A stretch of DNA of 60,754 nt, filler included, from an uncultured bacterium (lineage in GTDB: Bacteria; DAOPZR01), in assembly GCA_964637655.1 (NCBI GenBank). It is 6 parts of 6 records of this genome, joined end to end, with 100 filler letters (N's around TTAATTAATTAA, not from the genome) between each part and the next. Parts side by side here need not be neighbours in the genome. Positions count along the whole stretch, not along the records: positions 1 to 10,097 come from CAZWUZ010000136.1; positions 10,198 to 20,292 come from CAZWUZ010000137.1; positions 20,393 to 30,478 come from CAZWUZ010000138.1; 3 more parts are not named here. One strand, 5' to 3'. The number at the start of each line of letters is the position of its first letter. Within the stretch, counting starts at the first letter, position 1. The notes under the pieces were generated by a model. It was given only the letters and a program-made list of their open reading frames with translations. It had not been told where the DNA came from and searched no databases. Shown here piece after piece: positions 5,389 through 54,680 of this stretch. A program made the translations under genes and the position numbers.

Positions 5389-6389
5389 CGGAACTGCTGG
5401 TCGAGGCCGGGCTGCTGGTCCTCTGCCTCGTCGCCTCCGCCGGTGTTTCCGGTTTCGAGACGGCGCTTTTTTCGCTCGACCGCTTCCGCCTGGCCGAACT
5501 GGAAAAAAAGCGCACGCGCGGGGCGAAGGTGGTGCGCGAACTGCTCGCCGCCCCGTACACGACGCTGATCACCATCCTCATTGCCAACCTGCTGGTCAAT
5601 ACCGCGGCCGCCGCGCTGATGACCGCGGTCTGCGTCCGCGTGTTCGGGGATGAGGGTATCGGTATCGCCATCGGGGTGATGACCTTTGTTTTGCTGATCT
5701 GCGGCGAGTATACTCCCAAGGCCTACAGCATGGCGCATGCCGCCGCGGTGGCCCAGCGGCTGGGCCGTCCCGTCCAGTACCTGACCCAGGTGCTGGCACC
5801 GCTCATTTTCGTCGTGCGCGGCATCAACAATGCCGTGCTGCAGCGCCTGGCGCGCACCTGGCCGGTGACGAAGGAATCGGCCATCACCGAGGACGAGGTG
5901 CGCACCCTGATCAAGGTGAGCGCGCGCGAAGGGCATCTCGACGCGCACGAGCGCGACTGGATCAACAACATCTTCCGCTTCTCCGATCTCGAGGTCAAGG
6001 ATGTCATGCAGCCGGTGCACGACGCGGTGATGCTCGATATCGACCGCCCGCGCAGCGCCATCGAGGCCGACCTGCGCCGCCACCAGTGCTCGCGTCTCCC
6101 CTGCTACCGCGGCAACCGCAACCACCTCGTCGGGGTGCTGCTGGTCAAGGATTACCTGCTCGATCCCGACCGTGACATCAGCGAGTCGCTGCGCCCGCCG
6201 CTGACGGTTCGCCCGCGCGAACGGGTCGACCGTCTCTTCCGCCGCTTCCAGCGCGAGCGTATGCACCTGGCCATCGTGCGGCAGGGCGAGGACGTGGTCG
6301 GCCTGGTCACGCTCGAAGATGTGCTCGAGGAGATCTTCGGTGACATCTACGACGAGCGCGACCTGGCACCGCCGGAGGGGGCGCGGTGA
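5385..6389 (+). CDS. CNNM (DUF21)-CBS domain membrane protein
   Basis: SGFETALFSL, TILIANLLVN, GEYTPK, CBS pair, GLVTLEDVLEEIFGDI; lacks a C-terminal CorC/HlyC domain. Confidence 0.9.
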   Translation: MTELLVEAGLLVLCLVASAGVSGFETALFSLDRFRLAELEKKRTRGAKVVRELLAAPYTTLITILIANLLVNTAAAALMTAVCVRVFGDEGIGIAIGVMTFVLLICGEYTPKAYSMAHAAAVAQRLGRPVQYLTQVLAPLIFVVRGINNAVLQRLARTWPVTKESAITEDEVRTLIKVSAREGHLDAHERDWINNIFRFSDLEVKDVMQPVHDAVMLDIDRPRSAIEADLRRHQCSRLPCYRGNRNHLVGVLLVKDYLLDPDRDISESLRPPLTVRPRERVDRLFRRFQRERMHLAIVRQGEDVVGLVTLEDVLEEIFGDIYDERDLAPPEGAR

Positions 6390-7666
6390 GCGAACTGTTC
6401 CTGCTGGCCGGGGCACTGGTGCTCTATGGCGCCTGCATGGTCGGCTCGTTCTTTTTCTCGGGGAGCGAGACGGGGATGATCTCGCTCAACAAGCCGCGCC
6501 TGCGTCATCTGGCGGAGCAGGGAAACCGCCGCGCGCAGCGCCTGCTGCGCTGGGTGCCGCGTCAGGACACGTACCTCTCGACCATCCTCATCGGCAACAA
6601 CCTGGTCAACGTCACCGCCACGGCCATCGCGACCGCCGTCGGCATCCGCTACCTCGGCCCCTACCGCGGGGCGCTGGTCGCCACGGTGGTCAATACCGCG
6701 GTGTTCCTCGTCTGCTGCGAGGTTCTGCCCAAGGCGATTTTCCGGCAGTATGCCAACCGTCTGATGCTCGAACTGGCCGGACTCTTTCACCTCTCCGTCA
6801 TGCTGCTGCTGCTTCCCAGTCACCTGTTCGCCTTTATCGCGCGGGTCATCTTCCGCGTGCTCAATGTCCCCCCGCCGGCGGCGAAATCCGGGGTGGGCAA
6901 GGACGAACTGCGCATCATCCTGCGCACCGGGCAGGAAGAGGGGGAATTCACCGCCGAGGAGCACGCGATGATCACCCAGGTCTTCGACATGGGCAAGACG
7001 CGCACGCGCGAAGTGATGATCCCGCTCATCGATGTCGAGATGGTCAGTGAGACGGCGACCGTGGACGAATTTCTCGCACTCGCCCGCCGCACGGGTTACT
7101 CGCGCTTTCCCGTCTACCGCGAACGGGTCGATGAGGTTGTCGGGGTGATTGCCGTGTATGATGTGCTCTTTGCCGCGGAGCCGACCCCGACGGTGGCCGG
7201 GATGATGCGCCCGCCGCATTTCGTGCCCGAGACCAAGCCCGCCGACGAACTGCTGCGCGATATGCAGCAGCAGCGGCTGGCGGCCAAGGTGGTGGTGGAC
7301 GAATTCGGCGGTGCGGTCGGGTTTGTCACCATGGAGCAGATCCTCGAACAGGTTGTCGGGGAAATCCACGACGAAGGCGACGACATCGAGATCTGGTACC
7401 GGCAGATCAGCGCGAATGTCTGGGTGGTCGACGGTGGTGCCGACATCGACGAACTCGGCAAGGTGCTCGGTATCACTCTGCCCAAGGACGGGTATGACAC
7501 GCTGGCGGGGCTGGTGCTTTTTGCGCTGGGCCGCGTGCCGCGGGCCGGGGAAAAGCTGGTGCGCAACGGCTATCGCCTGACCGTGCTGTCGATGGACGGG
7601 CCGGCGGTGGAGCGGGTCAAGGTGGAAAAACTCCCGGAGACGCCGGTGGAAACAGCCGGCACATGA
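6386..7666 (+). CDS. CNNM-CBS-CorC/HlyC domain membrane protein (hemolysin family, CorB-like)
   Basis: FFSGSETG, TILIGNNLVN, EVLPK, YSRFPV, VVDEFGG, GEIHDE, YDTLAGLV. Confidence 0.9.
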   Translation: MSELFLLAGALVLYGACMVGSFFFSGSETGMISLNKPRLRHLAEQGNRRAQRLLRWVPRQDTYLSTILIGNNLVNVTATAIATAVGIRYLGPYRGALVATVVNTAVFLVCCEVLPKAIFRQYANRLMLELAGLFHLSVMLLLLPSHLFAFIARVIFRVLNVPPPAAKSGVGKDELRIILRTGQEEGEFTAEEHAMITQVFDMGKTRTREVMIPLIDVEMVSETATVDEFLALARRTGYSRFPVYRERVDEVVGVIAVYDVLFAAEPTPTVAGMMRPPHFVPETKPADELLRDMQQQRLAAKVVVDEFGGAVGFVTMEQILEQVVGEIHDEGDDIEIWYRQISANVWVVDGGADIDELGKVLGITLPKDGYDTLAGLVLFALGRVPRAGEKLVRNGYRLTVLSMDGPAVERVKVEKLPETPVETAGT

Positions 7667-8677: not shown

Positions 8678-8683
8678 TATAAT
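8678..8683 (+). promoter_or_regulatory. Sigma70-type -10 element for ncRNA copy 1
   Basis: Perfect TATAAT ending 7 nt before the first base of the terminal helix; no good -35 at 17-bp spacing. Confidence 0.6.
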
Positions 8684-8689
8684 AAGAGT

Positions 8690-9833
8690 GCCCGGGAATT
8701 GCGGGGCGCGTTCTTAGACAACAGGGAATCCGACACGACCCCGGACACGGAAGGTTTCTGCGCAGTCAGAAGTCGAAGTTGAAGTCAGCAGTCGCATCTT
8801 CAGGAGGTTGTTGAGAAGCAACAGTTCCATGGAGAGGTGGTGACACCAGGCTGTGACGTCGCTGGATCCGTGAGCGGGAGTCGAAGAGGAACAAAGCGCA
8901 TGGCAGCAGGCGGTTTTCGGACAGACGCCGCGCGGTGCCGGTAGCAAACCCTTGAAACCGGCGTGAAGTTCAGGAGAGTCAGGATCGGCAACGGTTCATC
9001 CCTGCATGGCTGAATACCCTGTGGTGCGGCGGAAGCACGGGAGGGGACGTCGGGTGGCAACACAGTCGGCGGGTCAGTGGGGCAGCACTCTGTAGAACAG
9101 CGTAACGGTAGGAAGGGAACATTCGGGAAGCCGGAGGGATACGGCATCACGAGAAGGCTGCGGAGCGCTAAGCCCAGGAGAGGATACCGGACGGATGACG
9201 AATACCACGCCATCAGTCGAGGGACTGTCTTCCGGAAGAAAGCCGTGAAGCCTTGAAAAAAGGCAGGGCGGCAGCAGGCCCGGAAGGGCTGAGGCTGGAA
9301 GGCAGGGGAAACCTCTGAAGGGCACAGGAACCTCACAGGGGGCACGGGGTTAGTGGCGTAGGCCGCGTTTGACGCCAACGGACCCGGGCAACGGGTAATA
9401 CCGCGAAGGCCTGCAAAAGGTCATGGTGGTCAGGAAAGCCTGAAACGGTGAGTACGTCGTTGCGCGGGGAGAATCCCCCAGAGAGGCAGAGAACCTTAGG
9501 AGGGTAGCTGGACGGTTGGTTGTCGGAGACGGCAGTCGGCGGTCAAAGCGTCGGATTCGGGTAGTTGCTCTGAAGCGGAACTGAACCCCATACGGGGTAA
9601 ACGGAAACCGAGAGGTGATCCGTTATCCGCACCGGAGAATATACCGCGCGGCGTTGGGAAAACGCGAGGCGGGAGAGTCGGCAGAGATGCTGATGATGGC
9701 CGGTGCGCTGCATCCCGAGAGGGGAAGCAAACCGCACGAGAGCAGATGAGCCGCAAGGTGCGTCAGCCCGGTTCCGGGAGAAAACCCTGAAAAGGACACC
9801 CTGTTGTCAGAATAGCGACTGTGATTTCCGGGC
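8690..9833 (+). ncRNA. Large structured non-coding RNA candidate, copy 1 (~1.14 kb, family unassigned)
   Basis: No credible ORF. 5' GCCCGGGAATTGCGG (8690-8704) pairs with CTGTGATTTCCGGGC (9819-9833), and GACAACAGGG pairs with CCCTGTTGTC. Multiple GNRA hairpins; collinear homology to 21612-22778. Confidence 0.85.
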
Positions 9834-10097
9834 CTTTTGTCTGCCCTGCCGGTTTTCACTCAGTTGCCGACAATCTGCTTTCCTGCGACATGAGCAGGCT
9901 GTTGAAAAAATCTTTCCGGCACTATCCTCCACATTCCCGAATCGTTGCCCCCGGGTTGTGTAATCGGGGAAATCGGGAATCCATCTTCAGTGAACAAAGG
10001 ACTGCTGATGGAAAAGGGGAAAGATGCGGGGAAAAGGACTGGACTACCTGCGGACTCGATAACCGCGCGCCCACGCCCGATGCATGTCCTGCCGGCA

Positions 10098-10197
10098 NNN
10101 NNNNNNNNNNNNNNNNNNNNNNNNNNNNNNNNNNNNNNNNNTTAATTAATTAANNNNNNNNNNNNNNNNNNNNNNNNNNNNNNNNNNNNNNNNNNNN
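10098..10197. other. Artificial contig spacer
   Basis: N-run / TTAATTAATTAA / N-run, 100 bp. Confidence 0.99.
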
Positions 10198-12005
10198 TGC
10201 GCATCGTTGACCGTGATGGCGTCGCTGGAATGACGCAGCAGCTGCTGCAGGCGGTCCTCGCTGTGGCGCAGGGCGTCCTCGGCGGCGCGTCGCTCGCTGA
10301 TGTCGGTAGCGGAGGCAATGAGGTGGGTGATGGCGCCATGTTCGTCGCGCAGCGGGCGGAGCGAAAAGTCGATGGTCTGGCGCGCCCCGTCCGCGATGCG
10401 GAAATCCAGGTCAGCACGCTGCACCGTGCCGGTCGCCGCCGCGTGAACCATCGCCCGCACCCGGGCCGCGACCGCCGGATCATGCGTCCACCACGGGCAG
10501 TCCCAGAACTTGCGCCCGACGACATCGAGTTCGGTCAGACCCGCCGCATCGAGCGGCGAACGGTTGACGGTAAGCACCGTGCCGTCGGTCTCGAGCAGCG
10601 CGGCATAGGGCATCATGCCGTCGAGCACGCGGTGCAGGAAGCGCTGCTCCTCGCGCAGCAGCGCCTCGCTCATCTTGCGCGCGGTGATGTCGGTGGCCAT
10701 CCCCTCGATGAGGATGGCCTCCCCTTCCCGCCGCCGCCCGAGACTGCGGTCGCGCAGCCAGCGCCACTGTCCGTGCGCGTCGCGCACGCGGTACTCAAGG
10801 TCGAAACTCCCCCCCTGCAGGAACCGCGTTATGGCCTCGTGCACGCGCGGCGCATCATCCGGATGGATGCTCTCCGCCCAGCGGTTGGGCTGCGCGAGCA
10901 GCTGCTGCGGGGTGAGCCCGAAAACCGCCGTCACCCCGGCCGAGTAGTAGATGCCGCCGCGCTGTGAGTGATATATGTAGATGACATGCGGCAGCGCCTC
11001 CACCAGCCGCCGGTAGCGGTCTTCGCTCTCGCGCAGTGCCCGCAACTGCTCCTCGCGCGCGGTAATGTCATGCCCGACCCAGAACACGCGGCGCGGATTA
11101 TCGAGCGGCTGCGCGTCCCACATGATGCTGCGCCAGGTACCGTCGCGGTGGCGGTAGCGGTTGACAAAATCGCGCACCGGCTCGCCCCGCTCGAGTGCCG
11201 CCATCGCCTGCCGCGTATGCTCCACGTCGTCAGGATGCACGAATTCAAGGAACCGCTGCCCGGACAGGCGCTGCAGGTCGAAGCCGAGCGTCGCCTGCCA
11301 GGCGCGGTTGACCTGGTGGATGACCCCGTCGAACCCGGTGACGCTGAGCAGGTCGAGCGACAGGTCGAATTCCTGCTTCTGCTGTTCGAGTTGTCCCTGC
11401 AGGCGCTGATGGACGGTGCGGTAGGCCGCTGCCAGCCGGTCGAGTTCGTCCTGCGGCCCGGCTGCCGGCAGCGGGATACGCCCGGCACTAATGTCGTCGG
11501 TCAGGCGGCACAGCGGACGGAACAGCAGCAGGCGCAGCAGCAGTGCGTTGATGCCGACAACCAGCAGCAGGACCGCGGCATCAAATGCCAGAGCACGGCT
11601 TGCCCGCTGCCACGCATCAGCGCGCAGCATTTCTTCATCAGCGTATAACTGCAGCACTGCCCCCCCCGTAAGCGCGATGGCGTAGTGACGACAATCGCTG
11701 CCCGGCAGCCCGACGCTGATGGCGGGCTGACCGGGACGCAGCAGCATTGCCGCGGTCAGCGGCCGGTTATTGGTGATACCATGCAGGGCAAGAATCAGCA
11801 GGTCTTCATGCCCGCTTGTCAGGTGATGATTGAGTTCGCGCACGCGGGCCTGCCGCGCGCGCTGCAGGTGCTGTGCCAGCACCGCTTCCGCTTCGCGCAG
11901 TCCGGTATGGTAATCGATAGCAGCGAGCAACGCGAGCAACGCAAGCCCATAGGCAGCCAGCCAGACAGCAATGCGCCGGCCGATGCTGACGCGACTGCTG
12001 CTCAT
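10198..12005 (-). CDS. Membrane sensor with HAMP-like and multiple PAS/PAC domains (3' end lost at gap)
   Basis: Two TM segments, DELDRLAAAY (HAMP-like), repeated HPDD and DIT.RK motifs; runs into the spacer, so the output domain is unknown. Confidence 0.85.
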
Positions 12006-14674
12006 CCCGCCGCTTCCTGCAGCAGGCGCGCGAGGTCATGCAGGTCGAACGGCTTGGGGAGCAGTTTCGCCCCGCCGCAGGCACGGTACTGCTGTTCGAC
12101 CGTGCCGGCATCGAGCGCCCCGCTGATGACGATAATGCCCACCTGCGGCTTGCGGGCGCGGGCGCGCCGCGCCAGTTCCGGGCTGGTCGTCCCCGGGATG
12201 TTGAAATCGAGGATGAGCAGGTCGTACTCCGTCTCCGCCAGCAGCGCGGCAGCGCTGTCGCCATCCGGCACGCAGTCGACCGTATGGCCGCGCTCGCGCA
12301 GCCATTCACCGACGGAGTGGAGGATGGCCTCCTCGTCGTCGACCAGCAGCAGGCGCAGCGGCCGCGCGGGTGCCATCGCCAGCGGTGTCGCCGGCGCGGC
12401 CACCGCGCTTTCGGCCGCGGTCGCCGGAAGCGCCACGGTAAACGTCGTCCCCGTATCCGGGTTGCTGTCTACGGTGATACGCCCGTGATGCGCCGCGATA
12501 ATGGCGGCGCTGACCGCCAGCCCGAGCCCGGTGCCATGCCGTCCCTGCGTCGCACCGCTCTTGGTGGTGAAAAACGGGGTGAAGAGCCGGGTTTTCACGG
12601 TCTCGCTCATCCCGCTGCCGTCGTCGGCCACCGTCACCACCGCCATCCCGTCCGTGCGCTGCACCGTCAGGCGCAGCGTGCCGCGCCCGTGCCCGTGCAT
12701 CGCCTCGCGCGCATTGAGGATGAGGTTGAGAAAAACCTGCTGCAACTGCCCCGCGTCCGCCGCCAGCGGCGCGTCATCGGCATAGTCGCGCACGACGCTG
12801 ATATTCTCGACCGCCAGCGCCTTTGCCTGCAGGCGCACGCACTCGTCGAGCACCTGCCCGAGCCGCACCGGCACGGGGCGCGGCGGGCGCGGACGCGAGA
12901 ATGAGAGCATGTCGCGCACGATGTCCGCACCGCGGCGCGTCTGTTCCTCGACCGTGCGCAGCACCCGCTCACATTCGGGGAGTGCCCGTTCATGCTCGTG
13001 CGCGAGGAGCAGCTGCGCGTTGGTGCGGATAATGGCCAGCACATTGTTGAACTCGTGCGCGATACCCGCCGCCAGCTGCCCGACCGCCGACAGTTTCGCC
13101 GCCTGTACCAGCTGTTCCTGCAGCTGATGTTCGCGGGTGACGTCGCGCAGCAGCGCCACCGCGTAGCGCCCGCCCGCAGCGGTGCGGAAGGCGGCAAACA
13201 TTCCCGCCGCACGCCCCGCCTCACCGCGCAGCAGCAGCGGTTCGGGCGACCCGCCCGCCAGCACGCGTTCCCGTGCCGCCGCCGGCAGCGCGCCGTCGAG
13301 CAGCGCCGCAGCACTCCGTTCGCCCGCCAGCCGTTGCCCCAGCAGGCGTTCCCCTTCCGCGTTCACCGTCTGCAGCGCGCCATCCGCGGCAAAGAGCAGC
13401 AGCCCGATGCCGGCATGCTCGACCAGCAGGCGGTAGCGCTCCTCGCTCTCCGCGAGCTGCGCATGGATCCACTTGAGTTCGGTGATATCGGTGAAGGCGG
13501 CGATGCACCCGCCCGTTTCGGGGAGCGGGTTGACCCGCAGCAGCACGGGGAGCGGCACCCCGTAGGGAACATGCAGCTGCGTCTCGCCAAGCCACCCTTC
13601 CCCCTCGCGCAGGCGGCGGCTGACCACTTCATGCGTGGCAGGGTCGGCGAACAGCCCGGCAAAACGGAGCGACTGTTCCGGCTGCTCCGCCCCGGTCAGA
13701 CAGCGGCAGGCGGCGTTGGCATAGAGAATCTCGCCGTCGCGACCGGTGATGAGCACCGCATCGCCGGCATGGTCGAGCGCGGCCCCGATGCGGCGCAGCT
13801 GCACCGCGGTCTGCTCGCGCTCGGTAACATCGCGGATGATGCCCAGCGTGCCGCAGAACACCTTGTCGGGATCGCTCACCTCGCCGAAGAACTCGCCGCA
13901 GGCGCTGACTTCGCCCCAGACGGGCGACTCGTCCGCGCCCGGCGCCGCGCGGCGCTGCAGGCGCACGCGCAGGTGGCGGGTCATGCGCTCGCCGGTGCGC
14001 CGCTCGTCAAACAGCCGCGGCGCCTGCTCGCCCAGTGCTTTTCCCGCGACGGCCGGGAGCACCAGTTCGCGGCAGCAGGTCGCGGCATCGTCGGGATGCA
14101 GCAGGATGCGGAAATGGCGCCCGAGCAGTTCCTCCGGCCGCCACCCGAGCTGTGCCACCGCGCGATTGACAAAGAGGATCATCCCGTCGGCATCGAGCCG
14201 GTAGATGATGTCGGGCACCGTGTCGACCAGCGTGCGGTACTCGTCTTCGCGCCGCCGCAGCCGGCCCTCCATCGTCTGCAGCCGCGCCGCGTCCGTATGC
14301 CGCGCCGCCGCCGCCGCCAGTGCGCGCGCGATGGCCGGCAGCAGCCGCGCCGGGCGGTCCTTGAGGATGAAATCGTCCGCTCCCGCGCGCATCACCGCGA
14401 CCGCCTGCTCCTCGCCGATCTGTCCCGAAACGATGATGACCGGCACGTGCGGCAGCGCGGCCCGCACCTGCTGCAGCGCCGCCATCCCGCCGAACCCCGG
14501 CAGGGTATAATCGGCAATGACCAGATCGCACGGCTCGCGCAGCGCCGCGTCGAGCGCAGCCGCGTCGGCCACGCGCACGGCCGCCAGGTCATAGCCCGCC
14601 TTGCGCAGCTCGCGCGTCAGCAGCAGGTAGTCGTCCTCGTTGTCCTCGACGACAATCAGGCGCAGCGGCGGCAT
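12002..14674 (-). CDS. Hybrid histidine kinase (REC-PAS3-HisKA-HATPase-REC)
   Basis: N-terminal receiver (VEDNEDD, IADY, GADDFILK), AGIAHEFNN H-box, QVFLNLILNA, PFFTTK, GTGLGL, C-terminal receiver (LVDDE, KPF). Confidence 0.93.
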   Translation of the reverse strand: MPPLRLIVVEDNEDDYLLLTRELRKAGYDLAAVRVADAAALDAALREPCDLVIADYTLPGFGGMAALQQVRAALPHVPVIIVSGQIGEEQAVAVMRAGADDFILKDRPARLLPAIARALAAAAARHTDAARLQTMEGRLRRREDEYRTLVDTVPDIIYRLDADGMILFVNRAVAQLGWRPEELLGRHFRILLHPDDAATCCRELVLPAVAGKALGEQAPRLFDERRTGERMTRHLRVRLQRRAAPGADESPVWGEVSACGEFFGEVSDPDKVFCGTLGIIRDVTEREQTAVQLRRIGAALDHAGDAVLITGRDGEILYANAACRCLTGAEQPEQSLRFAGLFADPATHEVVSRRLREGEGWLGETQLHVPYGVPLPVLLRVNPLPETGGCIAAFTDITELKWIHAQLAESEERYRLLVEHAGIGLLLFAADGALQTVNAEGERLLGQRLAGERSAAALLDGALPAAARERVLAGGSPEPLLLRGEAGRAAGMFAAFRTAAGGRYAVALLRDVTREHQLQEQLVQAAKLSAVGQLAAGIAHEFNNVLAIIRTNAQLLLAHEHERALPECERVLRTVEEQTRRGADIVRDMLSFSRPRPPRPVPVRLGQVLDECVRLQAKALAVENISVVRDYADDAPLAADAGQLQQVFLNLILNAREAMHGHGRGTLRLTVQRTDGMAVVTVADDGSGMSETVKTRLFTPFFTTKSGATQGRHGTGLGLAVSAAIIAAHHGRITVDSNPDTGTTFTVALPATAAESAVAAPATPLAMAPARPLRLLLVDDEEAILHSVGEWLRERGHTVDCVPDGDSAAALLAETEYDLLILDFNIPGTTSPELARRARARKPQVGIIVISGALDAGTVEQQYRACGGAKLLPKPFDLHDLARLLQEAAG

Positions 14675-14676
14675 CG

Positions 14677-15099
14677 TCAGTGGCCTCCCGGCGGGGTATT
14701 GAGCAGCAGCCAGTACTGGTGCAGCTGCTGCACCGCGGCGCAGAACTGCTCCGAATCGACCGGCTTGCGGATGTAGCTGTTCGTCCCCAGCCGGTACCCC
14801 TCGATGATATCGCGCTGCTCGTTCGAGGTGGTGAAGATGACCACCGGGAGCAGGCGCAGGTGTTCGTCAGCGCGCACCTGCCGCAGCACTTCGAGCCCGT
14901 CGATTTTCGGCAGTTTCAGGTCGAGCAGCACCAGTTGCGGCAGCGTGGCGCAGTCGCGCAGCATGGCGAGCGCCTCCTCGCCGTCGCGGGCCACGGTAAC
15001 CGGATTGGCGATGCGCCCCTGGCGCAACGCCCTGATGGTCAGTTCGGCATCGTCGGGATTGTCCTCGACGAGCAGCAGGTACGCTTCCGTGGTCTGCAT
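14677..15099 (-). CDS. Single-domain response regulator (Rcp1-like)
   Basis: LLVEDNPDD, LLDLKLPKIDG, PVVIFTTS, NSYIRKPV. Confidence 0.93.
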   Translation of the reverse strand: MQTTEAYLLLVEDNPDDAELTIRALRQGRIANPVTVARDGEEALAMLRDCATLPQLVLLDLKLPKIDGLEVLRQVRADEHLRLLPVVIFTTSNEQRDIIEGYRLGTNSYIRKPVDSEQFCAAVQQLHQYWLLLNTPPGGH

Positions 15100-15117
15100 A
15101 TCCTCTCCTCCGTTTTC

Positions 15118-17319
15118 TCAGCCAAGTGTAAAGGTGAATGCCGCGCCCGTGCCGGGCGCCCCCGTCGCGGTGATTTCTCCGCCGTGCCGGTGGACAATGC
15201 GCTGCGCCACCGGCAGTCCGATGCCCGTACCGGGGAATTCATCGTCGCGATGCAGGCGCTGGAACGGCTGGAACAGCTTTTCCGCGTAGCGCGGGTCGTA
15301 GCCGGCACCGTTGTCCGCCACCGTGTAGCGCACCGTCCCGTGGTCGGCATCCGCGGTGAACGTGATGCGCGCCGCCGCCGTGCGTCCCGTGAACTTCCAC
15401 GCGTTGTCAAGCAGGTTCTGCAGCAGCAACCGGAGCAGGCGGGGGTCACCCTGCGCCTGCAGGCCGTCAGTAAGTTCCACGGTCACCACGCGCTCCGGCT
15501 GCGCCGCCTGCAGTTCGCGCACCACCTCATGCGCCAGCGCGCTCAGGTCGACCGTCTCCTGGCGCAGTTCATGGCGCGCCACCCGCGACAGGTCGAGCAG
15601 GTCGTCGATAATGCGCCCGAGGCGCTGCGCCCCGCTGCGGATACGCGCGAGGTAGTGCTGCGCCTCCGCCGGCAGGGCCGCCGCGTGGTCCTCGCTCAGC
15701 GCCTGCCCGTAGCCGTCGATAGCGCGCAGCGGCGCGCGCAGGTCATGCGCCACGGAATAGGCGAAGGCCTCGAGTTCGCGGTTGACGCGCGCCAGTTCCG
15801 CAGTGCGCACCGTCACCATCTCCTCGAGATGGTCGCGGTAGCGCGCCACTTCCGTCTCGGCCGCTGTCCGCTCGCTGACATCGCGGATGAAGGCGACCGC
15901 GAGATTCTGTCCGCCGTCGGCAACCACGGTCAGCGACACTTCCACCGGCACCGGGTCGCCCGCCGCCGGCCTGGCCTGCACGCCGGTTGCCAGCCCGCCA
16001 CCGGCCGTCACCGCGGCGGCCAGTGCCGGCAGTGCCGTTGGGTCGAACCACGTCCGCCAGCTGCTGCCGCACAGTGCCCCGGCCGGTGTGCGCAGCAGCA
16101 GCGCCGCCCGCGGGTTGGCGGCAACCACCGTGTCGTCCGCCGTGCCGAAGAGCAGCACCGCGTCGCGCGCCGTTTCGATGATACGCCGGTAGCGTTCTTC
16201 GGAACGGCGCACCCGCTCCTCCGCCTCGCGCGTCGCGGTGATGTCCTGCGTGACGGAGAGCACCCCGGTGATGGTGCCGGTTCCGTCGCGGTACGGGACT
16301 TTCTCGATGTAGACCCAGCGGGTGCGTCCCTGCCACTGCTGCTCCTCGACGACTGTCAGCGGTTCGCCGCCCTGCAGCACCTGCGCATCCTGCGCCTGCG
16401 CGCGCGCGGCGCGCTCGGGCATCAGTTCGGCAAAGGTACGTCCCTGCATCTGCGCCGGGGTCATCCCGTGCAGCGCCGCCGCCGCGGCATTGCAGTGCAG
16501 CAGCACCCCCGCGCGGTCCTTGAGCCAGACCCCGACCGGGATGCGCGCGAGAATGGCCTCCGTCTCCCGCTGCAGCGCGGCCACCTGCTCGCGCGCCGTG
16601 TGCAGGTCGGTGACATCATCGAAACTCTCGATGCCGCCGCACACCGCGCCCTGCGCGTCGCGCAGCACATCGACATTCTTGCTGATCTTCCGCTGCTGCC
16701 CGTCGCGCGTGCGGATACGGCACTGCCGCCCGTGTATCGGTTTGGGGACCCCGTCGTCAAACAGACCGCAGCCGTCGCGGCAGGGTTGCTCCGCGAAGAG
16801 CGTGCAGGGCTGCCCGAGCATCTCCGCCGCGGCAAACCCGGTGATTTCCTCCGCGCGGCGGTTCCACGAGGTGATGCGCTTCTCCCGGTCGACCGTAAAG
16901 ACCGCGCTCGGGACGATCTGCCGCAGGTGCTCGAGTTCCTCGCGCGTCCGCGCCGCCGCCTGCGCCGCGCTCTCGTCACGCACCACCGCCACCACGTCGC
17001 CACTGTCGAGCGGGTGCAGATCGGCAACGAACGGCATGTCACCTGCCGGCATGGGGAGGGTATAGGCGATACGCACCGCCGTGCGATGCGCCCGCGCCCG
17101 CTGCAGCCCGTCAGTCAGCAGCGCCGCCGTATCGCGCGGCAGTACCTCGTCGAGACGCCGGTTGAGAAAGAGTTCCGGGGCCACGTAGAGGCGGCTGCTG
17201 CGGCCAGCAGCGTAGCTGCGGATGATATTCTGCGCATCGACCCGGAAATAGATGTCGGGAATGACCGCGAGGATGGCTTCGAGTTCCGCCGCGCTGGCCG
17301 CGCCCCGCTGCTCAGCCAT
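15118..17319 (-). CDS. Multi-PAS sensor histidine kinase
   Basis: Likely start MAEQRG at 17319; four PAS-like repeats, FAYSVAHDLRAPLR H-box, NLLDNAWKF, DNGAG, F.RLH, GTGIGL. Confidence 0.9.
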   Translation of the reverse strand: MAEQRGAASAAELEAILAVIPDIYFRVDAQNIIRSYAAGRSSRLYVAPELFLNRRLDEVLPRDTAALLTDGLQRARAHRTAVRIAYTLPMPAGDMPFVADLHPLDSGDVVAVVRDESAAQAAARTREELEHLRQIVPSAVFTVDREKRITSWNRRAEEITGFAAAEMLGQPCTLFAEQPCRDGCGLFDDGVPKPIHGRQCRIRTRDGQQRKISKNVDVLRDAQGAVCGGIESFDDVTDLHTAREQVAALQRETEAILARIPVGVWLKDRAGVLLHCNAAAAALHGMTPAQMQGRTFAELMPERAARAQAQDAQVLQGGEPLTVVEEQQWQGRTRWVYIEKVPYRDGTGTITGVLSVTQDITATREAEERVRRSEERYRRIIETARDAVLLFGTADDTVVAANPRAALLLRTPAGALCGSSWRTWFDPTALPALAAAVTAGGGLATGVQARPAAGDPVPVEVSLTVVADGGQNLAVAFIRDVSERTAAETEVARYRDHLEEMVTVRTAELARVNRELEAFAYSVAHDLRAPLRAIDGYGQALSEDHAAALPAEAQHYLARIRSGAQRLGRIIDDLLDLSRVARHELRQETVDLSALAHEVVRELQAAQPERVVTVELTDGLQAQGDPRLLRLLLQNLLDNAWKFTGRTAAARITFTADADHGTVRYTVADNGAGYDPRYAEKLFQPFQRLHRDDEFPGTGIGLPVAQRIVHRHGGEITATGAPGTGAAFTFTLG

Positions 17320-20292
17320 CGGCCGGTTCCGTGCTGAGCGTGAACGCAAACGCGGCACCGCCGCCCGGCAGGGTTTCTGCCCGCAGGCGGCCACCGTGGC
17401 GGCTGACGATGCGCTGCACCACGGCCAGCCCGATACCGGTGCCCGGGTACTGGTCGTCAGCATGCAGCCGCTGGAACGGTTGGAACAGTTCCTGCTGGCG
17501 CGCCGGGTCGAATCCTGCGCCATTGTCGGACACCGTGTACCATGTCTCTCCGGCCGCTGTCTCCGCGGTCACCTGGATGGCCGGCGCGATTGTCCCCGCG
17601 GTGAATTTCCACGCGTTGTCGAGCAGATGGCGCAACGCGAGGCGCAGCAGCGCCGGGTCGGCGGTTGCCTGCAGCCCGGGGGCGATGGTCACATTGACCG
17701 CGCGCGCCGGCTGCGCGCGGCGCACTTCCGCGACGAGCGAGCCGGCCAGCGCCGACAGGTCGCAGGGTTCCCGCCGCAGTTCCGCCCGCGCGAGCCGCGC
17801 CAGTTCGACCAGGTCGCTGACCAGCGCGTTCAGCCGCTGCGCCGCGCGGTCGAGCCGGCGCAGCTGATCACGCCCCGTCTCGTCGAGCGACGCCGCCTGA
17901 TCTTCGCGCAGGGCACGGGCGTAGCCGCTCAGCGCGCGCAGCGGGGTCCGCAGGTCGTGCGCCATGGCGACGGTAAACGACTCGAGTTCGCGGTTGACGC
18001 GGTGCAGGTCGGCAGTCCGCGCGCGCACGGTCAGTTCCAGCTGCTCCTGCTGCCGGCGCAGTGCCTGCTCCAGCACGCGCCGGCGGGTCAAATCGCGCAG
18101 GATGCCGAGATAGCCGATGATCTTCCCGTTGCGGTCGCGACGCACCCGCCCCCGGTTGCTGAACCAGCGCGCGCTCCCGTCGGCAGCGCGCACGCAATAC
18201 TCGTTTTCCCGTTCTTCGCCACCCGCCATGACGCGCGCACAGGCCGCACGCCCCGCGTCGCGGCTCTGCGGGTGCACAGAGTCGAGCAGCGGACGCCCGG
18301 TCAGCCGCTCGGGACGGTGCCCGAGCAGCGCCGTTGCCTGCGGGCTGACATACTCGATGACGCCGGACGGCGCGAGACGGTAGGCGAGGTCGCGGTTCTG
18401 TTCGATCAGTTCGCGATAGTGCTCCTCGTTGCGGCGCAGCGCCTGTTCCGCGCGTTTCAGTTCGGTGAGGTCGCGCCCGATGCCGAGCACCGCGCTGACC
18501 GTGCCGTCCGTTGCCATGAGCGGGATCAGCGTCGTCTCCTGCCAGGCGCTGCCGTCAGGCAGGCGCACCTCGCTGCTCGTGCGCACCTGCCGGCGCGTGG
18601 TGAAGACCCGCGCCAGCGCCTGCTGCTGCTGCTGGGCCACCGCGGGCGGGAAGAGGTCGGCGCGCTGCTGCCCGACAAGTTCGTCAGGGGCGCGGCGCAG
18701 GAAATGCGCCGCCACCGGGTTGACATAGCGGACGCGGTCGGCGGCATCGATGAGGAAGACGAGGTCGGGCACTGCATCGAGCAGCATGCGCGTGCGCTCG
18801 TCGAGCAGGTCATCCGTTGGCGACGCCGTGGCCGGGGACGTCACCCCGCGCGGCAGCGCGACGGTGAAGGTCGAACCCTCACCGGGCCGGCTGGCGACCC
18901 GCACGCCGCCGCCATGCCGCTCGATGATTTCGCGCACCACGGCCAGCCCGATGCCGACCCCGCCCTGCCGCCGTGTCGGACCGCTCTCCACCTGGTAGAA
19001 GCGGGTGAAGATCTGCTCCTGCTCAGCCGCGGGGATGCCGATGCCGCTGTCCGTCACGCTCAACTCCTGCTGCGCGTCGCCCGGCGGATGCACGGTGACG
19101 CTCACGCTCCCTTCCGCCGGGGTGAACTTGAGCGCATTATCGACGAGGTTGATCAGCACCTGCTGCAGGCGCCGCGGGTCGCCGGCCAGCAGCACGGTCT
19201 GTGTGTCGCCATGCAGCGACAGCGCTATGCCCGCCGCCCGCGCCTTGGGCTGCAGCAGCGCCACCACCTCGCGCGCCAGCGAGGCGAGGTCGACCGTTTC
19301 CAGCGCCAGCGGGTCGTCCGCCCCCTGCAGGCGCGAGAAGGTGAGCAGGTTGTCGATAAGCCCGACCAGCCGGTCGAGGTTGCGCAGCACCGCCGCGAGC
19401 TGCTCGCGCTGCCGCGGCGTCACCGGACCGGAATACCCCTCGGCGATCAGTTCCGCGTAGCCGCGCACGGCGACCAGCGGGGTGCGCAGTTCATGCGACA
19501 CCGTCGACAACAGGTTGTTCTTGAGCGTGTCGAGTGCGCGCAGTTCACCGTTCAGCCGCTGCAGTTCCTCCGCCGCCTGCCGCCGCTCCTCCTCCTGCCG
19601 CCGCGTGGCGCTGATATCGCGCATGTAGCCGCGCAGACCGACCGTGGTACCGCCACGCCGCACCACCGCGGAGCGGATTTCGACATTCAGCCAGCTGCCG
19701 TCGCGGTGCCGCACGCGGTAGGTGCCCGGGTTCCGCGTGGCGCCGTCCAGCACCTCGTGCAGCGCGATCAGCGCCTGACCGCGGTCGTCGGGATGGATGA
19801 ACTCGAATACCGCATGACCGAGCAGGTCGCTCCCCGGTGCATAACCGAAGAGCGCGTAGAGCGCGCGGTTGGCGAAACTGAGCCGCCCGGTCAAATCGGT
19901 CTCGAACACCCCGAGCGGGAGGAAATCTGCCAGCGTGCGGTAGCGTTCCTCGTTGGCCCGCAGTTCCGCCGCCGCCTGGTCCTGCTGCGTCAGGTCGCGC
20001 ACGTAGGCCCACCATTCGACCGTGCCGTCCGCCGCCGTGTCACGCACCAGCGTCACCGCGACCGGGATGCGCAGGCCGTCACGCCGCACGAAATGTTTCT
20101 GCAGCGTCAGCGGCCCGCTGTCGGGCAGGTCGCGCACCTGCTGCACTTCGCGCGCATACTCGTCAGGGAGCGACAGGTCAGCCACCGTCAGGCCGTGCAC
20201 CTCCTCCGCCGCGCGGCCGACCAGCCGCCGGAAGGCGGCATTGCTGCCGATGATGGCCGCGGGCGCGTCCGGACGGACAATGCCGTCCGGGG
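17312..20292 (-). CDS. PAS sensor protein with two complete histidine kinase cores (5' end lost at gap)
   Basis: The frame stays open to the spacer. Core 1: SHELRTPL/NLVDNALKF/DSGIGI/GVGIGL. Core 2: AHDLRTPL/LLDNAWKF/DNGAGF/GTGIGL. Confidence 0.9.
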
Positions 20293-20392
20293 NNNNNNNN
20301 NNNNNNNNNNNNNNNNNNNNNNNNNNNNNNNNNNNNTTAATTAATTAANNNNNNNNNNNNNNNNNNNNNNNNNNNNNNNNNNNNNNNNNNNN
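20293..20392. other. Artificial contig spacer
   Basis: N-run / TTAATTAATTAA / N-run. Confidence 0.99.
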
Positions 20393-20461
20393 CTGGAGGG
20401 ATTCGAACCCCCGACCTTCTGGTCCGTAGCCAGACGCTCTATCCAGCTGAGCTACAGCCGC
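20393..20461 (-). tRNA. tRNA-Arg(ACG), 3' end cut by gap
   Basis: GCGGCTGTAGCTCAGCTGGATAGAGCG-TCTGG CTACGGA CCAGA-...GGTTCGAATCC. Confidence 0.95.
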
Positions 20462-20510
20462 ACGCTATCCTTTTGTCCGGCAGCGGCAACGGCGCCGCAA
20501 CCATGAGCAA

Positions 20511-20599
20511 TGGCGGAGAGAGTGGGATTTGAACCCACGGTACCTTGTGAGTACGCCGCCTTAGCAAGGCGGTGCCTTAAGCCGCTCGGCCATCTCTCC
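20511..20599 (-). tRNA. tRNA-Ser(GCT)
   Basis: GGAGAGATGGCCGAGCGG...CCGCC TTGCTAA GGCGG, long variable arm, GGTTCAAATCC, 3' GCCA. Confidence 0.96.
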
Positions 20600-20624
20600 G
20601 TAACAGTTGCACAACACGACGCTA

Positions 20625-20714
20625 TGGCGGAGGGGGAGGGATTCGAACCCCCGGACGGGTTGCCCCGTCTCCGGTTTTCAAGACCGGCCGATTCAACCGC
20701 TCTCGCACCCCTCC
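20625..20714 (-). tRNA. tRNA-Ser(TGA)
   Basis: GGAGGGGTG...CCGGT CTTGAAA ACCGG, long variable arm, GGTTCGAATCC, 3' GCCA. Confidence 0.96.
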
Positions 20715-20773
20715 CGCACGCCACGGCGGCAACAGTGCACACACCGCGACTTCACCGCCACCATCGCCCATAC

Positions 20774-20802
20774 AGTATAGCAGATAAGCCGGGGTCTGTC
20801 AA
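20774..20802 (-). promoter_or_regulatory. Sigma70 promoter of the tRNA cluster
   Basis: TTGACA-17 bp-TATACT on the minus strand. Confidence 0.85.
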
Positions 20803-20818
20803 TGAATAAACGACGTAA

Positions 20819-20847
20819 TTGACGCGCAGCAGCGGATGAGGTATATA
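20819..20847 (+). promoter_or_regulatory. Putative sigma70 promoter of recR
   Basis: TTGACG-17 bp-TATATA, divergent from the tRNA promoter. Confidence 0.6.
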
Positions 20848-20872
20848 CGGGGCGGGAGGGAAGCAGAAGACC

Positions 20873-21472
20873 ATGCTCGCCGTACCACCGCCGCTCGCGC
20901 GCCTCATCCGCGAACTCAACCGTCTCCCCTCCGTGGGGCAGAAAACCGCGCAGCGTCTTGCCTTTCATCTGCTGGGGCAGCAGCGGGTGCAGGCGCGCGA
21001 CCTGGCGCAGGCGCTGCTTGCCGCGGCGGAGCAGATGCGCCCCTGCCGCCGCTGCGGCAACCTCACCGACGCGGAGGAGTGCACCATCTGCCGCGCCCCG
21101 GGCCGGGCCAACGGCCTGCTCTGCGTCGTCGAGGAGGTGCGCGATCTGTTCACCATCGAGGGGGCGCGCGTCTTCGCCGGCAGGTATCATGTGCTCGGGG
21201 GATTGCTCTCGCCGCTCGACGGGGTCGGCCCGCAGGACCTGAGCATCCCGCAGCTGCTGCGCCGCCTCCCCGACGAGCAGATCCGCGAGGTGATCATTGC
21301 CACCAACCCGACGGTGGAAGGGGAAGCGACCGCCTCGTACCTCGCGCGGGCCATCCATCCGCTCGGGGTGCGTGTCACGCGCATCGGGTTCGGCATGCCG
21401 GTGGGTGGCGACCTGGAATTTGCCGATGAACTGACGTTGTCACGGGCACTGGAAGCACGGCGCGAGTTGTAG
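20873..21472 (+). CDS. recR: Recombination mediator RecR
   Basis: LPSVGQKTAQRLA (HhH), C4 zinc finger, LCVVE, YHVLGG.LSPLDG.GP, EVIIATNPTVEGEATA. Confidence 0.97.
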   Translation: MLAVPPPLARLIRELNRLPSVGQKTAQRLAFHLLGQQRVQARDLAQALLAAAEQMRPCRRCGNLTDAEECTICRAPGRANGLLCVVEEVRDLFTIEGARVFAGRYHVLGGLLSPLDGVGPQDLSIPQLLRRLPDEQIREVIIATNPTVEGEATASYLARAIHPLGVRVTRIGFGMPVGGDLEFADELTLSRALEARREL

Positions 21473-21576
21473 GCATCAGGCCAGAAACCCCGGCGAATAG
21501 CTGCATATCACAATTCGTTTATCTTACATATAGTAAAACAGTTGCACTGATACTTTCAACAATTATGTAATTCACC

Positions 21577-21605
21577 TTGACGCCACTGCCGCTTTCCGGT
21601 ATAAT
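21577..21605 (+). promoter_or_regulatory. Near-consensus sigma70 promoter for ncRNA copy 2
   Basis: TTGACG-17 bp-TATAAT preceded by an AT-rich tract (~21510-21575); predicted start ~21612 coincides with the start of the terminal helix. Confidence 0.9.
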
Positions 21606-21611
21606 GGGAAC

Positions 21612-22778
21612 TGCCTGAAGGTCAGTGGCTGTTCTTAGACAACAGAATCCGACACAGAGCCGGACACCCGGAGCCGTTTCGACGGCGACGGCGGCAGGGA
21701 ACAGGGCGTATTCCTGGCGTGGGCAGCGGGAGCTGCAGAGCGCGGGAAGCTGGCAACAGCAGCCCCAACCGACCGCATGAGAGGGAGCGAGCGGCGACTG
21801 AAGAGGAAAAGAAGCGCAGAGCAGGCGGCGCCGGTGAGAACCGGAGAGGCCGCAAGCCGCGGGGAGCAACACCCTGCAGCCGGGCGCAACACCGTGTGAA
21901 GAACGGGCCGGTCGCAAGATCGGCAACGGACGCGGGCAGGACCAGATACCCTGGAGCGGTGGAAAACCGCAGGAGGGGAGCACGACGCGAGAGCGGGCGG
22001 GCGGTCTGATCGCGGGGAAGATTCAGAGGGTGGGCATAACGGCATGAGGGTAACCGTCCGGAAGCGGGCGGATATCCGCGGTACGAGAAACCTGCAGAGC
22101 GCGTAAAGTTCAGGAGAGGCAGCAACCGCATTCATCTAACCGTGGGCGCGGCGAGCGATCCTGTTCCGGAGTAACGCTTCGCAGCCTTGCAAAAAGGCAG
22201 GGGAGCACGAGGCCCGGGAGGGCGGAGGCTGGAACAGGGGAGAACCCTCTGAAGAACATGAATCCCGGAAAGGGCACGAGGCCAGTGGGCGGGTAAACAA
22301 CCCCGTCTGCGTCTGGAGCCAACGGATGTCCGGAAGGTGCAATACCGCGAGGTCCTGAGAAAGGACGGGGCGGTCAGGAAAGCCGGCAACGGTGAGTACC
22401 ACCGACGGACAGGGACACCCTTAGGGGGACGGAAAACCTTGGGAAGGGAGCCGGGTGGAACGGCGGCAGAGATGCCGTCGGGAAGGTCGGCAGCAGCATC
22501 CGGAACAAAGCTCTGAAGCGGGGCGGAATTCCATGAAGGTGAGCCGGGGCCGAGAGGATTCCCGGTGGAGCGCGGCGGAGAAAAGCCCGTGCGGTCGTGA
22601 GAAACGACGGGACGGGGGCGGAGCCGAGAGGCAGAAGCCGGTCGCAGCGCGAATCCTTGCAGGAAGAGCCAACCGCAGGAGAGCAGGGGAATCAGCGATG
22701 GTTCTACCGCTGGATGATGCGGGCAAACCCTTGGGAAGGCGGACTGTTGTCAGGAATAGAAGCTGATTTCTTCAGGCA
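21612..22778 (+). ncRNA. Large structured non-coding RNA candidate, copy 2 (~1.17 kb, family unassigned)
   Basis: TGCCTGAAG-GTCAG (21612-21625) pairs with CTGAT..CTTCAGGCA (22763-22778); CTGTTCTTAGACAACAG pairs with CTGTTGTCAGGAATAG. Has its own promoter and terminator; collinear with 8690-9833. Confidence 0.88.
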
Positions 22779-22791
22779 CTTTTTGTATAGC

Positions 22792-22820
22792 AACGACGCG
22801 GCGACGCGTCGTTTTTTTTT
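22792..22820 (+). terminator. Intrinsic terminator after ncRNA copy 2
   Basis: AACGACGCG-GCGA-CGCGTCGTT hairpin running into a T9 tract. Confidence 0.92.
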
Positions 22821-22867
22821 GCCCCGCGCACCCCGCTCTGCTATACTCGCCGCAGGAGAAGAAGACC

Positions 22868-23227
22868 ATGGTCCGACAGGAAGAATTCATGCGCCGCGTC
22901 GCCTCTGCCGCGCGCGGGGCGGGCGGCAGCGCCCGCGCCCTCGAAAACAGTTACTTCGCGCGTACCGACCCGTCCTTTTTGCGCGCGCTCGCCGCTGACG
23001 CGACACAGCAGAAACAGGCCCTGCAGCAGGAACACGGGAAGGAGAAGCACTGGCGGGTCTGCCCGTCGTGCGGGGCGCGCCTGCGCGAGGAAAACCTCGC
23101 CGGCGTGCTCATTGACGCCTGCCCCGCCTGCGGCGGGCTGTGGTTCGATCAGGGGGAAGTGGAACTGCTGCTGCGCGCGAAGCGCTCCTTCTGGACGCGT
23201 CTGCGCGAACTGTTCCGCGCGCCCTAA
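22868..23227 (+). CDS. zf-TFIIB-type zinc-ribbon protein
   Basis: E..YF N-terminus, CPSCG...IDACPACGGLWFDQGE; AGGAG RBS upstream. Confidence 0.85.
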   Translation: MVRQEEFMRRVASAARGAGGSARALENSYFARTDPSFLRALAADATQQKQALQQEHGKEKHWRVCPSCGARLREENLAGVLIDACPACGGLWFDQGEVELLLRAKRSFWTRLRELFRAP

Positions 23228-54593: not shown

Positions 54594-54680
54594 TGGTGCC
54601 GGGAGCGGGAATTGAACCCGCACGCCCTTGCGGACCCGGGATTTTAAGTCCCGTGCGTCTGCCAGTTCCGCCATCCCGGC
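54594..54680 (-). tRNA. tRNA-Leu(TAA)
   Basis: GCCGGGATGGCGGAACTGGCAGACGC-CGGGA CTTAAAA TCCCG-...GGTTCAATTCC...ACCA; upstream TTGACA-17-TATGGT. Confidence 0.96.

Follow-up and report, generated by a model that had tools for sequence, protein, structure and literature searches.

To our knowledge, very few bacterial non-coding RNAs (ncRNAs) combine a length of more than 500 nucleotides (nt) with an intricate conserved fold, and those with solved roles are ribozymes, core machines or, recently, unprecedented RNA-only cages. The closest described systems, OLE, ROOL and GOLLD, are compared here with an RNA of ~1.13 kb encoded at two loci in a 60,754-base stretch of DNA (the window), which consists of six ~10-kb pieces joined by N runs. 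The RNA bodies lie at positions ~8709-9832 (copy 1) and ~21625/21630-22775 (copy 2), both on the plus strand and on different contigs of one assembly. These loci probably represent an ancient gene duplication, the products belonging to a so far undescribed class of large, highly structured ncRNA, for which a scaffold mechanism may be proposed.

OLE, which we take to be Rfam entry RF01071, is flanked by the genes of its partner proteins, and no partner gene is conserved at both loci of the new RNA. The literature describes OLE as a chromosomal, highly expressed structured RNA of ~600 nt in the Bacillota, functioning as a ribonucleoprotein scaffold, and among trans-acting structural RNAs it offers the closest functional analogy. 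However, the lineage differs, and the new RNA is double the length of OLE, contains an internal repeat and has no Rfam match.

ROOL (RF03087), likewise a large ornate RNA without an assigned function, is roughly half the size of the new RNA. Conserved loops that are palindromic or self-complementary were not found among the 22 hairpin loops and the unpaired columns of the latter. ROOL is described as a cage of eight identical chains, made of RNA only and stabilised by kissing loops and A-minor contacts (PMC12286853), while the new RNA repeats within one chain. By analogy, A-minor or kissing contacts are plausible for its GNRA- and A-rich loops. GOLLD (RF01998) shares with the new RNA a very large size, an ornate multi-domain fold with many conserved loops, abundance in environmental RNA data and the lack of an assigned function. 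GOLLD members, at >800 nt, are located in phages and prophages near tRNA islands (PMC12286853), whereas the ~1.13 kb RNA, longer than GOLLD as the initial annotation had held, is chromosomal, occupies syntenic sites, has no phage match and carries tandem modules in one chain.

Comparison of the whole window against Rfam 15 at gathering scores identified four tRNAs only, and at both loci, with E-values up to 10, scattered matches of 12-19 bits to unrelated families were obtained, far below the cut-offs. The families concerned include GOLLD, ROOL, OLE, raiA, HEARO, RNase P, tmRNA, 6S, group I and II introns and rRNA, and the earlier suggestion that the RNA may be an undescribed class is supported in this respect at both loci. 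No description of such an RNA was found in the literature at the level of abstracts, and literature matches to 13-mers proved to be unrelated mammalian primers. In the second genome found to encode the RNA (G001), the ordinary forms of RNase P (282.6 bits), tmRNA (130 bits) and signal recognition particle (SRP) RNA (75.1 bits) all score over their cut-offs, so that the new RNA does not replace one of these. We regard it as a new class that works most like OLE, ROOL and GOLLD but falls within none of these families. The ncRNA reading of the initial annotation is supported, with no refuting test that was run going against it, and is extended here by orthologues of both copies, a tandem module of ~150 nt, an invariant terminal helix and restriction to an isolated lineage.

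Consensus fold and internal modules

Five sequences were compared, comprising both window copies, a 1123-nt metagenome contig (L001) and two loci of G001. For these, RNAalifold predicts a consensus fold of 49 helices and 307 base pairs (covariation term, -25.9 kcal/mol). Standard pairs account for 91.6% of the 1524 cells, as opposed to 40-43% when the 3' partners were slid by 1-3 columns, while 118/307 pairs are changed on both sides, compared to 16-26 in the slid controls. None of 500 shuffles reached the observed value on any of five measures, and 38/49 helices include at least one pair changed on both sides. A large folded RNA under structural selection had been proposed for these loci, and the strong covariation among the five sequences bears this out. 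Similarly, a hairpin reported as retained between the conserved blocks (9518-9537 in copy 1; 22461-22480 in copy 2) corresponds to helix 37 of the consensus fold, in which 7/14 pairs are changed on both sides. The element has the properties of a large structured orphan ncRNA, with a length above 500 nt (~1.13 kb), broken reading frames, transcription signals of its own and a complex fold with covariation in 118 of the 307 pairs across the five sequences.

The two ends of the RNA are joined by a closing helix (GACAACAG/CTGTTGTC in copy 2), which lies within a 15-base block shared unchanged by the five sequences and is itself without covariation. In copy 1 numbering this is helix 1, in which 7/9 pairs never vary in the five sequences, with an A-G cell in one of the remaining two pairs and two gap cells in the other. 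Its 5' strand in copy 1, GACAACAGG (8717-8725), is located inside the invariant block GTTCTTAGACAACAG and pairs with 9800-9808. The invariance of this helix, in place of covariation, suggests that it has a sequence-specific role. The fold includes 22 hairpin loops, with 7-8 GNRA tetraloops in each RNA as well as several GNRAA-like pentaloops. Unpaired bases are 75-79% purine, and 38% of the unpaired columns are invariant across the paralogues. Identity between the paralogues is highest at the 5' end (94%) and in modules A and B (60-68%) and lowest in the 5' domain (47-51%).

Among the unpaired segments, CCCUGC of copy 1 (9000-9005) is complementary to GCAGGG of copy 2 (21694-21699), these sites representing columns 358-363 and 109-114, respectively, of alignment A2. 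The same columns in G001 are also complementary, with wholly different letters (GUUUCU and GGGAAC, including two G-U pairs), and this is the sole one of eleven such window pairs to be kept in G001. It may reflect a contact between the paralogues or chance, the alignment being unreliable in these variable stretches.

The interior of the RNA is a tandem array of modules. A covariance model (R1) was constructed from module B only, the best-conserved domain (165 nt; alignment A3), which carries GGTCAGGAAAGCC...AACGGTGAGTAC and in which 91.4% of the alignment cells are paired and 13/42 pairs are changed on both sides. This model also finds module A, immediately upstream of B, in 5/5 RNAs (E-values of 3e-11 to 4e-7), module C, downstream of B, in 4/5 RNAs (4.5e-6 to 0.003) and module D, further upstream, in 3/5 RNAs (0.004 to 0.03). 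In copy 1, these are situated at 9169-9327 (A; 47.5 bits, E = 1e-10), 9328-9489 (B), 9583-9727 (C; 29.5 bits, E = 4.5e-6) and 8965-9101 (D; 15.9 bits, E = 0.013), while those of copy 2 are found at 22105-22259 (A; 33.7 bits, E = 3.8e-7), 22260-22432 (B; 153.9 bits) and 22526-22668 (C; 19 bits, E = 0.002). The module D places also match in L001 (E = 0.03) and in the G001 orthologue of copy 2 (E = 0.004). All of these R1 matches occur at homologous places, and the best unrelated match in the 60-kb window reaches 13 bits. Common to the modules are a two-step outer helix, GAA-CCYC...GGGG / CCCC-AGA-GRGG, and an internal hairpin in which a 3x3 purine loop is conserved, but the modules have diverged unequally, with only module B keeping long invariant unpaired blocks. 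The matches of R1 to further domains thus identify the RNA as a tandem array of diverged, homologous modules of ~150 nt, which is enclosed together with a distinct 5' domain by the one closing helix. Modules A, B and C are clear and module D is weak.

The plus strand contains 6-16 stop codons per frame in both window copies (5-16 across all five RNAs), and its longest open reading frames (ORFs), of 59-133 amino acids, have no counterpart in G001. No Pfam match was obtained for the three ORFs tested. Indels of a length not divisible by three account for 18/20 of those between the copy 1 orthologues and 5/5 of those between the copy 2 orthologues, and substitutions are evenly distributed over the three codon positions, with no 3-base periodicity. 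No reading frame is conserved among the homologues, in agreement with the ncRNA call. Antisense ORFs of up to 192 amino acids are present, with frames and spans that differ between the copies and no Pfam match. The plus strand is identified as the RNA by the 157 G-U cells in the consensus fold, as against 28 A-C cells, since each G-U pair would read as an A-C mismatch in the complementary strand. The single-sequence fold of copy 2 module B, which recovers the main helices, likewise gives a z-score of -1.94 on the plus strand versus -0.68 on the minus strand.

Paralogues, distribution and transcription

Copies 1 and 2 share 59% identity over 1089 aligned bases, with a purine content of 62-65%. 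Both purine-rich, ORF-free regions were located where the initial annotation had placed them, on separate contigs divided by N runs, and in pairwise alignment all of the short blocks it lists follow the same order along the two copies. Two of these, GGTCAGGAAAGCCNNNAACGGTGAGTAC and GTTCTTAGACAACAG, each have exactly two occurrences in the window, at the places given for them, with none expected from 100 dinucleotide-preserving shuffles. The spans originally proposed (8690-9833 and 21612-22778) cover the correct regions, but the bodies have been narrowed to ~8709-9832 and 21625/21630-22775 on the basis of conserved sequence, contig ends and the terminal helix. The copy 1 body (~1124 nt) is 94.8% identical to L001 over exactly this span. 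The ends of L001 coincide with the copy 1 RNA ends, its 3' end falling at the position homologous to 9832, as though the RNA alone had been assembled.

A search with RecR, encoded upstream of copy 2, recovered one close relative (locus L004 of G001; 76% identical), with the next best at 58%. Downstream of recR, L004 contains a copy 2 orthologue with 77% identity across 1206 bases (76-77% over the full length of the ~1150-nt RNA body), while an orthologue of copy 1 (74% identical) is located on another G001 contig. As the orthologues are closer to each other (74% for copy 1 and 76% for copy 2) than the paralogues are (59%), the duplication predates the split of the two genomes, and the view of the loci as diverged paralogues is upheld. 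Exactly two loci of the RNA occur in each of the two genomes. The order recR, RNA, Zn-ribbon gene (PF13453) is common to both genomes, and a CNNM/CorC transporter gene is situated upstream of copy 1 in both, with cysK between them only in the window. The phylum-level group of G001 contains G001 alone, and this, together with the distant RecR relatives, places the window organism in a very isolated lineage. The next-best RecR relatives are scattered over many phyla.

BlastN of copy 2 against 60 relatives gave G001 as the sole real match, and R1 searches, which covered ~150 distinct genomes of other lineages, provided no credible match besides G001 among 150 relatives with stricter filters (149 others) or among 40 with laxer filters (39 others). 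A 20-bit R1 match in genome G007 was discarded as chance, as it lies inside a 203-amino acid ORF and has many broken pairs. A module B block pattern had no matches in the genome_contigs collection, although it is too strict, with even the G001 orthologues differing from it. The same pattern matched three loci in metagenome_contigs, of which L001 is the sole true match, while those in L002 and L003 fall within coding DNA and are due to chance. Seven viral_contigs loci recovered with a looser pattern do not contain the RNA, with R1 scores of at most 18 bits located elsewhere in the loci and the core deleted, and BlastN against phages and plasmids returned no match. Members of the family have so far come from two genomes of a single isolated lineage, a metagenome contig and numerous contigs from RNA libraries.

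Each gene is preceded by its own predicted sigma-70-type promoter. That of copy 2, TTGACG-17-TATAAT (21577-21605; 11/12 matches), is located as had been reported, and the same hexamers and spacing precede its G001 orthologue. The terminator reported for copy 2 was likewise found at 22792-22813, as a 9-bp hairpin and T run (22792-22821 in all), and is replaced at the same place in G001 by a hairpin of different sequence (10 bp), also with a T run. For copy 1, the TATAAT noted at the same offset is present at 8678-8683 and aligns with that of copy 2 and of both G001 orthologues, with no good -35 box; its G001 orthologue has TCTACA-17-TATAAT. The piece with copy 1 extends 265 bases beyond the RNA. 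In all four genomic copies, a short leader (8684-8708 in copy 1; 21606-21629 in copy 2) separates the -10 box from the conserved GTTCTTAG and could form a hairpin, with letters that, by eye, differ in each copy. The RNA-library contigs and L001 begin after this leader, which may be trimmed off.

Part of the stretch 20873-23227 of the window is represented in twenty listed public sequencing runs from ten studies, comprising 13 RNA libraries and seven DNA runs, from habitats which include sediment, wastewater, ice, soil and marine sediment. Sampled words were present at 0.20-0.29 in the RNA libraries and 0.23-0.69 in the DNA runs. Contigs of 4/20 runs, all RNA libraries and from four studies, were placed on the stretch, and in 4/4 of these libraries contigs fall on the RNA, in line with its proposed expression. 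In run X7, one contig of 1148 nt spans the RNA (21625-22759; 26 differences), and run X9 has an 834-nt contig starting at 21627. Run X8, recorded as an ice metagenome, has 76 contigs on the stretch (21720-22564), with most of the listed pieces on the RNA. These fall into four identity bands (nine at at least 99%, twenty at 95-99%, 32 at 90-95% and fifteen under 90%), so that many natural variants of the RNA exist. In two studies, contigs terminate at 21625 and 21627 without a loose end, and the copy 1 base homologous to these contig ends is where L001 begins; a mature 5' end 12-17 nt below the likely start site is weakly hinted at. Among the 22 X7 variants listed (with 48 more beyond these), fourteen are in unpaired columns, one both-side change stays paired, three single changes keep pairing and three break it, which is weakly consistent with the fold. 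None of the RNA-library contigs listed bridges the RNA and the downstream gene. In the four libraries, recR, the spacer and the Zn-ribbon gene were not covered, apart from short pieces of contigs whose remainder is unlike the window, but such lack of cover carries no evidential weight.

Candidate roles of the RNA

The RNA appears to be a discrete, stable molecule, a folded particle which acts in trans and is not a messenger, leader or antisense transcript. An architectural role is tentatively preferred over the other roles considered. The duplicated modules would pack against each other via their many GNRA-type loops and A-rich junctions and so build up a pseudo-repetitive scaffold, with or without proteins, with a role comparable to that of OLE, ROOL and GOLLD particles. 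Module B and the terminal helix would carry the sequence-specific functional site.

Several points weigh against the reading of the loci as genes for a structured scaffold RNA. The fold was predicted from the same alignment that was used for the pair counts, which inflates these counts, and the five sequences derive from about three organisms and are effectively four, as L001 and copy 1 share 95% identity. Among the unpaired columns, a search for conserved pseudoknots or pairing between loops was negative at 4 and 5 bp, and the significance of module D is marginal. In the promoter and terminator scan, copy 1 had no recognisable -35 box or terminator. Assembled contigs give no strand, true ends or level, and DNA carry-over into the RNA libraries is possible.

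Among bacterial RNAs without an assigned function, such an RNA would be one of the largest. Its interior represents RNA domain duplication caught in the act, with subsequent specialisation of the three to four homologous modules, and is thereby relevant to the growth of large RNAs such as rRNA. Two paralogues have been kept across two genomes of a lineage that is alone in its phylum group. Parts of the query stretch occur in RNA libraries from many habitats, with contigs on the RNA itself in the four libraries compared, so that material exists for deep alignment, covariation statistics and cryo-EM. The RNA could also be used as a sensitive marker of this almost unknown lineage.

A more specific architectural proposal, which we regard as speculative and rather unlikely, is that of a 'fused oligomer', where the four homologous modules in one chain form a pseudo-symmetric closed particle clamped by the terminal helix, and the paralogues might pair as a hetero-dimeric RNA-only assembly. 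The protein counterpart is a protein that has arisen by the fusion of the subunits of a homo-oligomer. If true, this would constitute a new architectural principle among natural RNAs, in the largest non-ribosomal structured RNA of bacteria, one that is specific to a phylum-level lineage and sufficiently abundant for its assembly from many environmental transcriptomes.

The tandem modules could alternatively, together with GGA purine tracts, bind multiple copies of a regulator, CsrA or another, and sequester it as CsrB and RsmZ do. Like these sponges, the new RNA has repeated units in one transcript, is purine-rich, contains many GGA triplets (43-53 in each RNA) and has paralogues, with redundant CsrB/CsrC or RsmX/Y/Z sets resembling the two paralogues per genome, and G001 encodes a CsrA homologue (90.5 bits). 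However, GGA is not clearly enriched, as shuffles contain 36-44 triplets and the observed counts are only 1.0-1.7 standard deviations above mononucleotide shuffles, and ~3-5 of the 22 hairpin loops, as read from the loop list, contain GGA. The modules are unequal, only B having long invariant unpaired blocks, and are therefore not equivalent binding sites. CsrB/RsmZ sponges are strings of simple hairpins of 100-400 nt, and a fold of 49 helices with long-range pairing, multi-way junctions and a closing helix is far more elaborate than a sponge needs. Sequestration of a regulator is considered improbable.

Catalysis is marginally less probable still. Large conserved bacterial RNAs are often ribozymes, as exemplified by rRNA, RNase P and the group I and II introns, and the long unpaired blocks found to be invariant in module B and at the 5' end could constitute a catalytic core that is buttressed by the other modules; the 38% of unpaired columns that are invariant across the paralogues would be in keeping with this. 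The RNA has, however, no likeness to any Rfam ribozyme family, the two loci have no conserved candidate substrate or associated gene in common, and G001 has an RNase P of its own.

Tandem homologous structured domains within one RNA also recall tandem riboswitch aptamers, such as those for glycine, and a cis-acting leader or multi-aptamer riboswitch array controlling a downstream gene could be envisaged, given the Zn-ribbon gene after copy 2 in both genomes. In tandem riboswitches, a pair of small aptamers within a 5' leader controls the downstream gene, whereas the new RNA has three to four modules of ~150 nt in a terminated, free-standing transcript of 1.1 kb, several times the length of any known leader, with no Rfam riboswitch match. 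A strong terminator separates copy 2 from the next gene in both genomes, this gene has a promoter-like site of its own, and no listed RNA-library contig runs into it; for copy 1 the downstream context is seen for 265 bases only. Control of a downstream gene is accordingly very improbable. Lastly, the possibility that the element is no functional RNA but a degenerating repeat, the remnant of a mobile element or a protein gene missed on one of the strands is largely refuted and scarcely credible, since the antisense ORFs of up to 192 amino acids, although they have BlastP matches between the two genomes, occupy different frames and spans in each copy of a pyrimidine-rich strand that is stop-poor by composition, with indels that are not multiples of three and no Pfam match, the element occurs in syntenic positions in two genomes with only two copies in each and no match in phages or plasmids, and neutral decay leaves the compensatory changes unexplained.

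Domain map and neighbouring genes

The remaining domains, all on the plus strand, follow one another in the same order in both copies. In copy 1, the 5' strand of the closing helix is followed by the 5' domain (8725-8892; helices 2-7, with 10/15 pairs of helix 6 changed on both sides) and by domain 2 (8893-9168; helices 8-19), which contains the weak module D. Two linker hairpins downstream of module B (9487-9544; helices 35-37) include the GAGA hairpin of the initial annotation, and the 3' domain (9545-9799; helices 38-49) contains module C and precedes the 3' strand of the closing helix, CCTGTTGTC, with its tail (9800-9832). In the consensus fold of copy 2, the corresponding features are the 5' strand of the closing helix, GACAACAG (21638-21645), the 5' domain (21645-21810), domain 2 (21811-22104), the linker hairpins (22430-22487), the 3' domain (22488-22742), which also contains module C, and the 3' strand of the closing helix and tail (22743-22775).

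Upstream of cysK and copy 1, two CNNM/CBS (CorC-type) paralogues are encoded on the plus strand with a 4-base overlap (5385-6389 and 6386-7666), while one homologue only was seen in the G001 stretch compared. The Zn-ribbon protein (PF13453; 22868-23227, plus strand; 119 amino acids, 57% identical in G001) is encoded directly after the copy 2 terminator in both genomes, with its own promoter-like site at 22819-22847, and is a possible candidate for a partner of the RNA. Three tRNA genes are clustered just upstream of recR (20388-20714, minus strand), and a fourth is located at 54597-54680 (minus strand). A tRNA-like match at the corresponding end of the G001 contig indicates that the synteny probably reaches the tRNA cluster. 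Elsewhere in G001, a 6S-like match (L097; G001:C89:6650-6809) with a score of 40.6 bits, below the Rfam cut-off of 46.4, may represent a divergent 6S RNA of this lineage.

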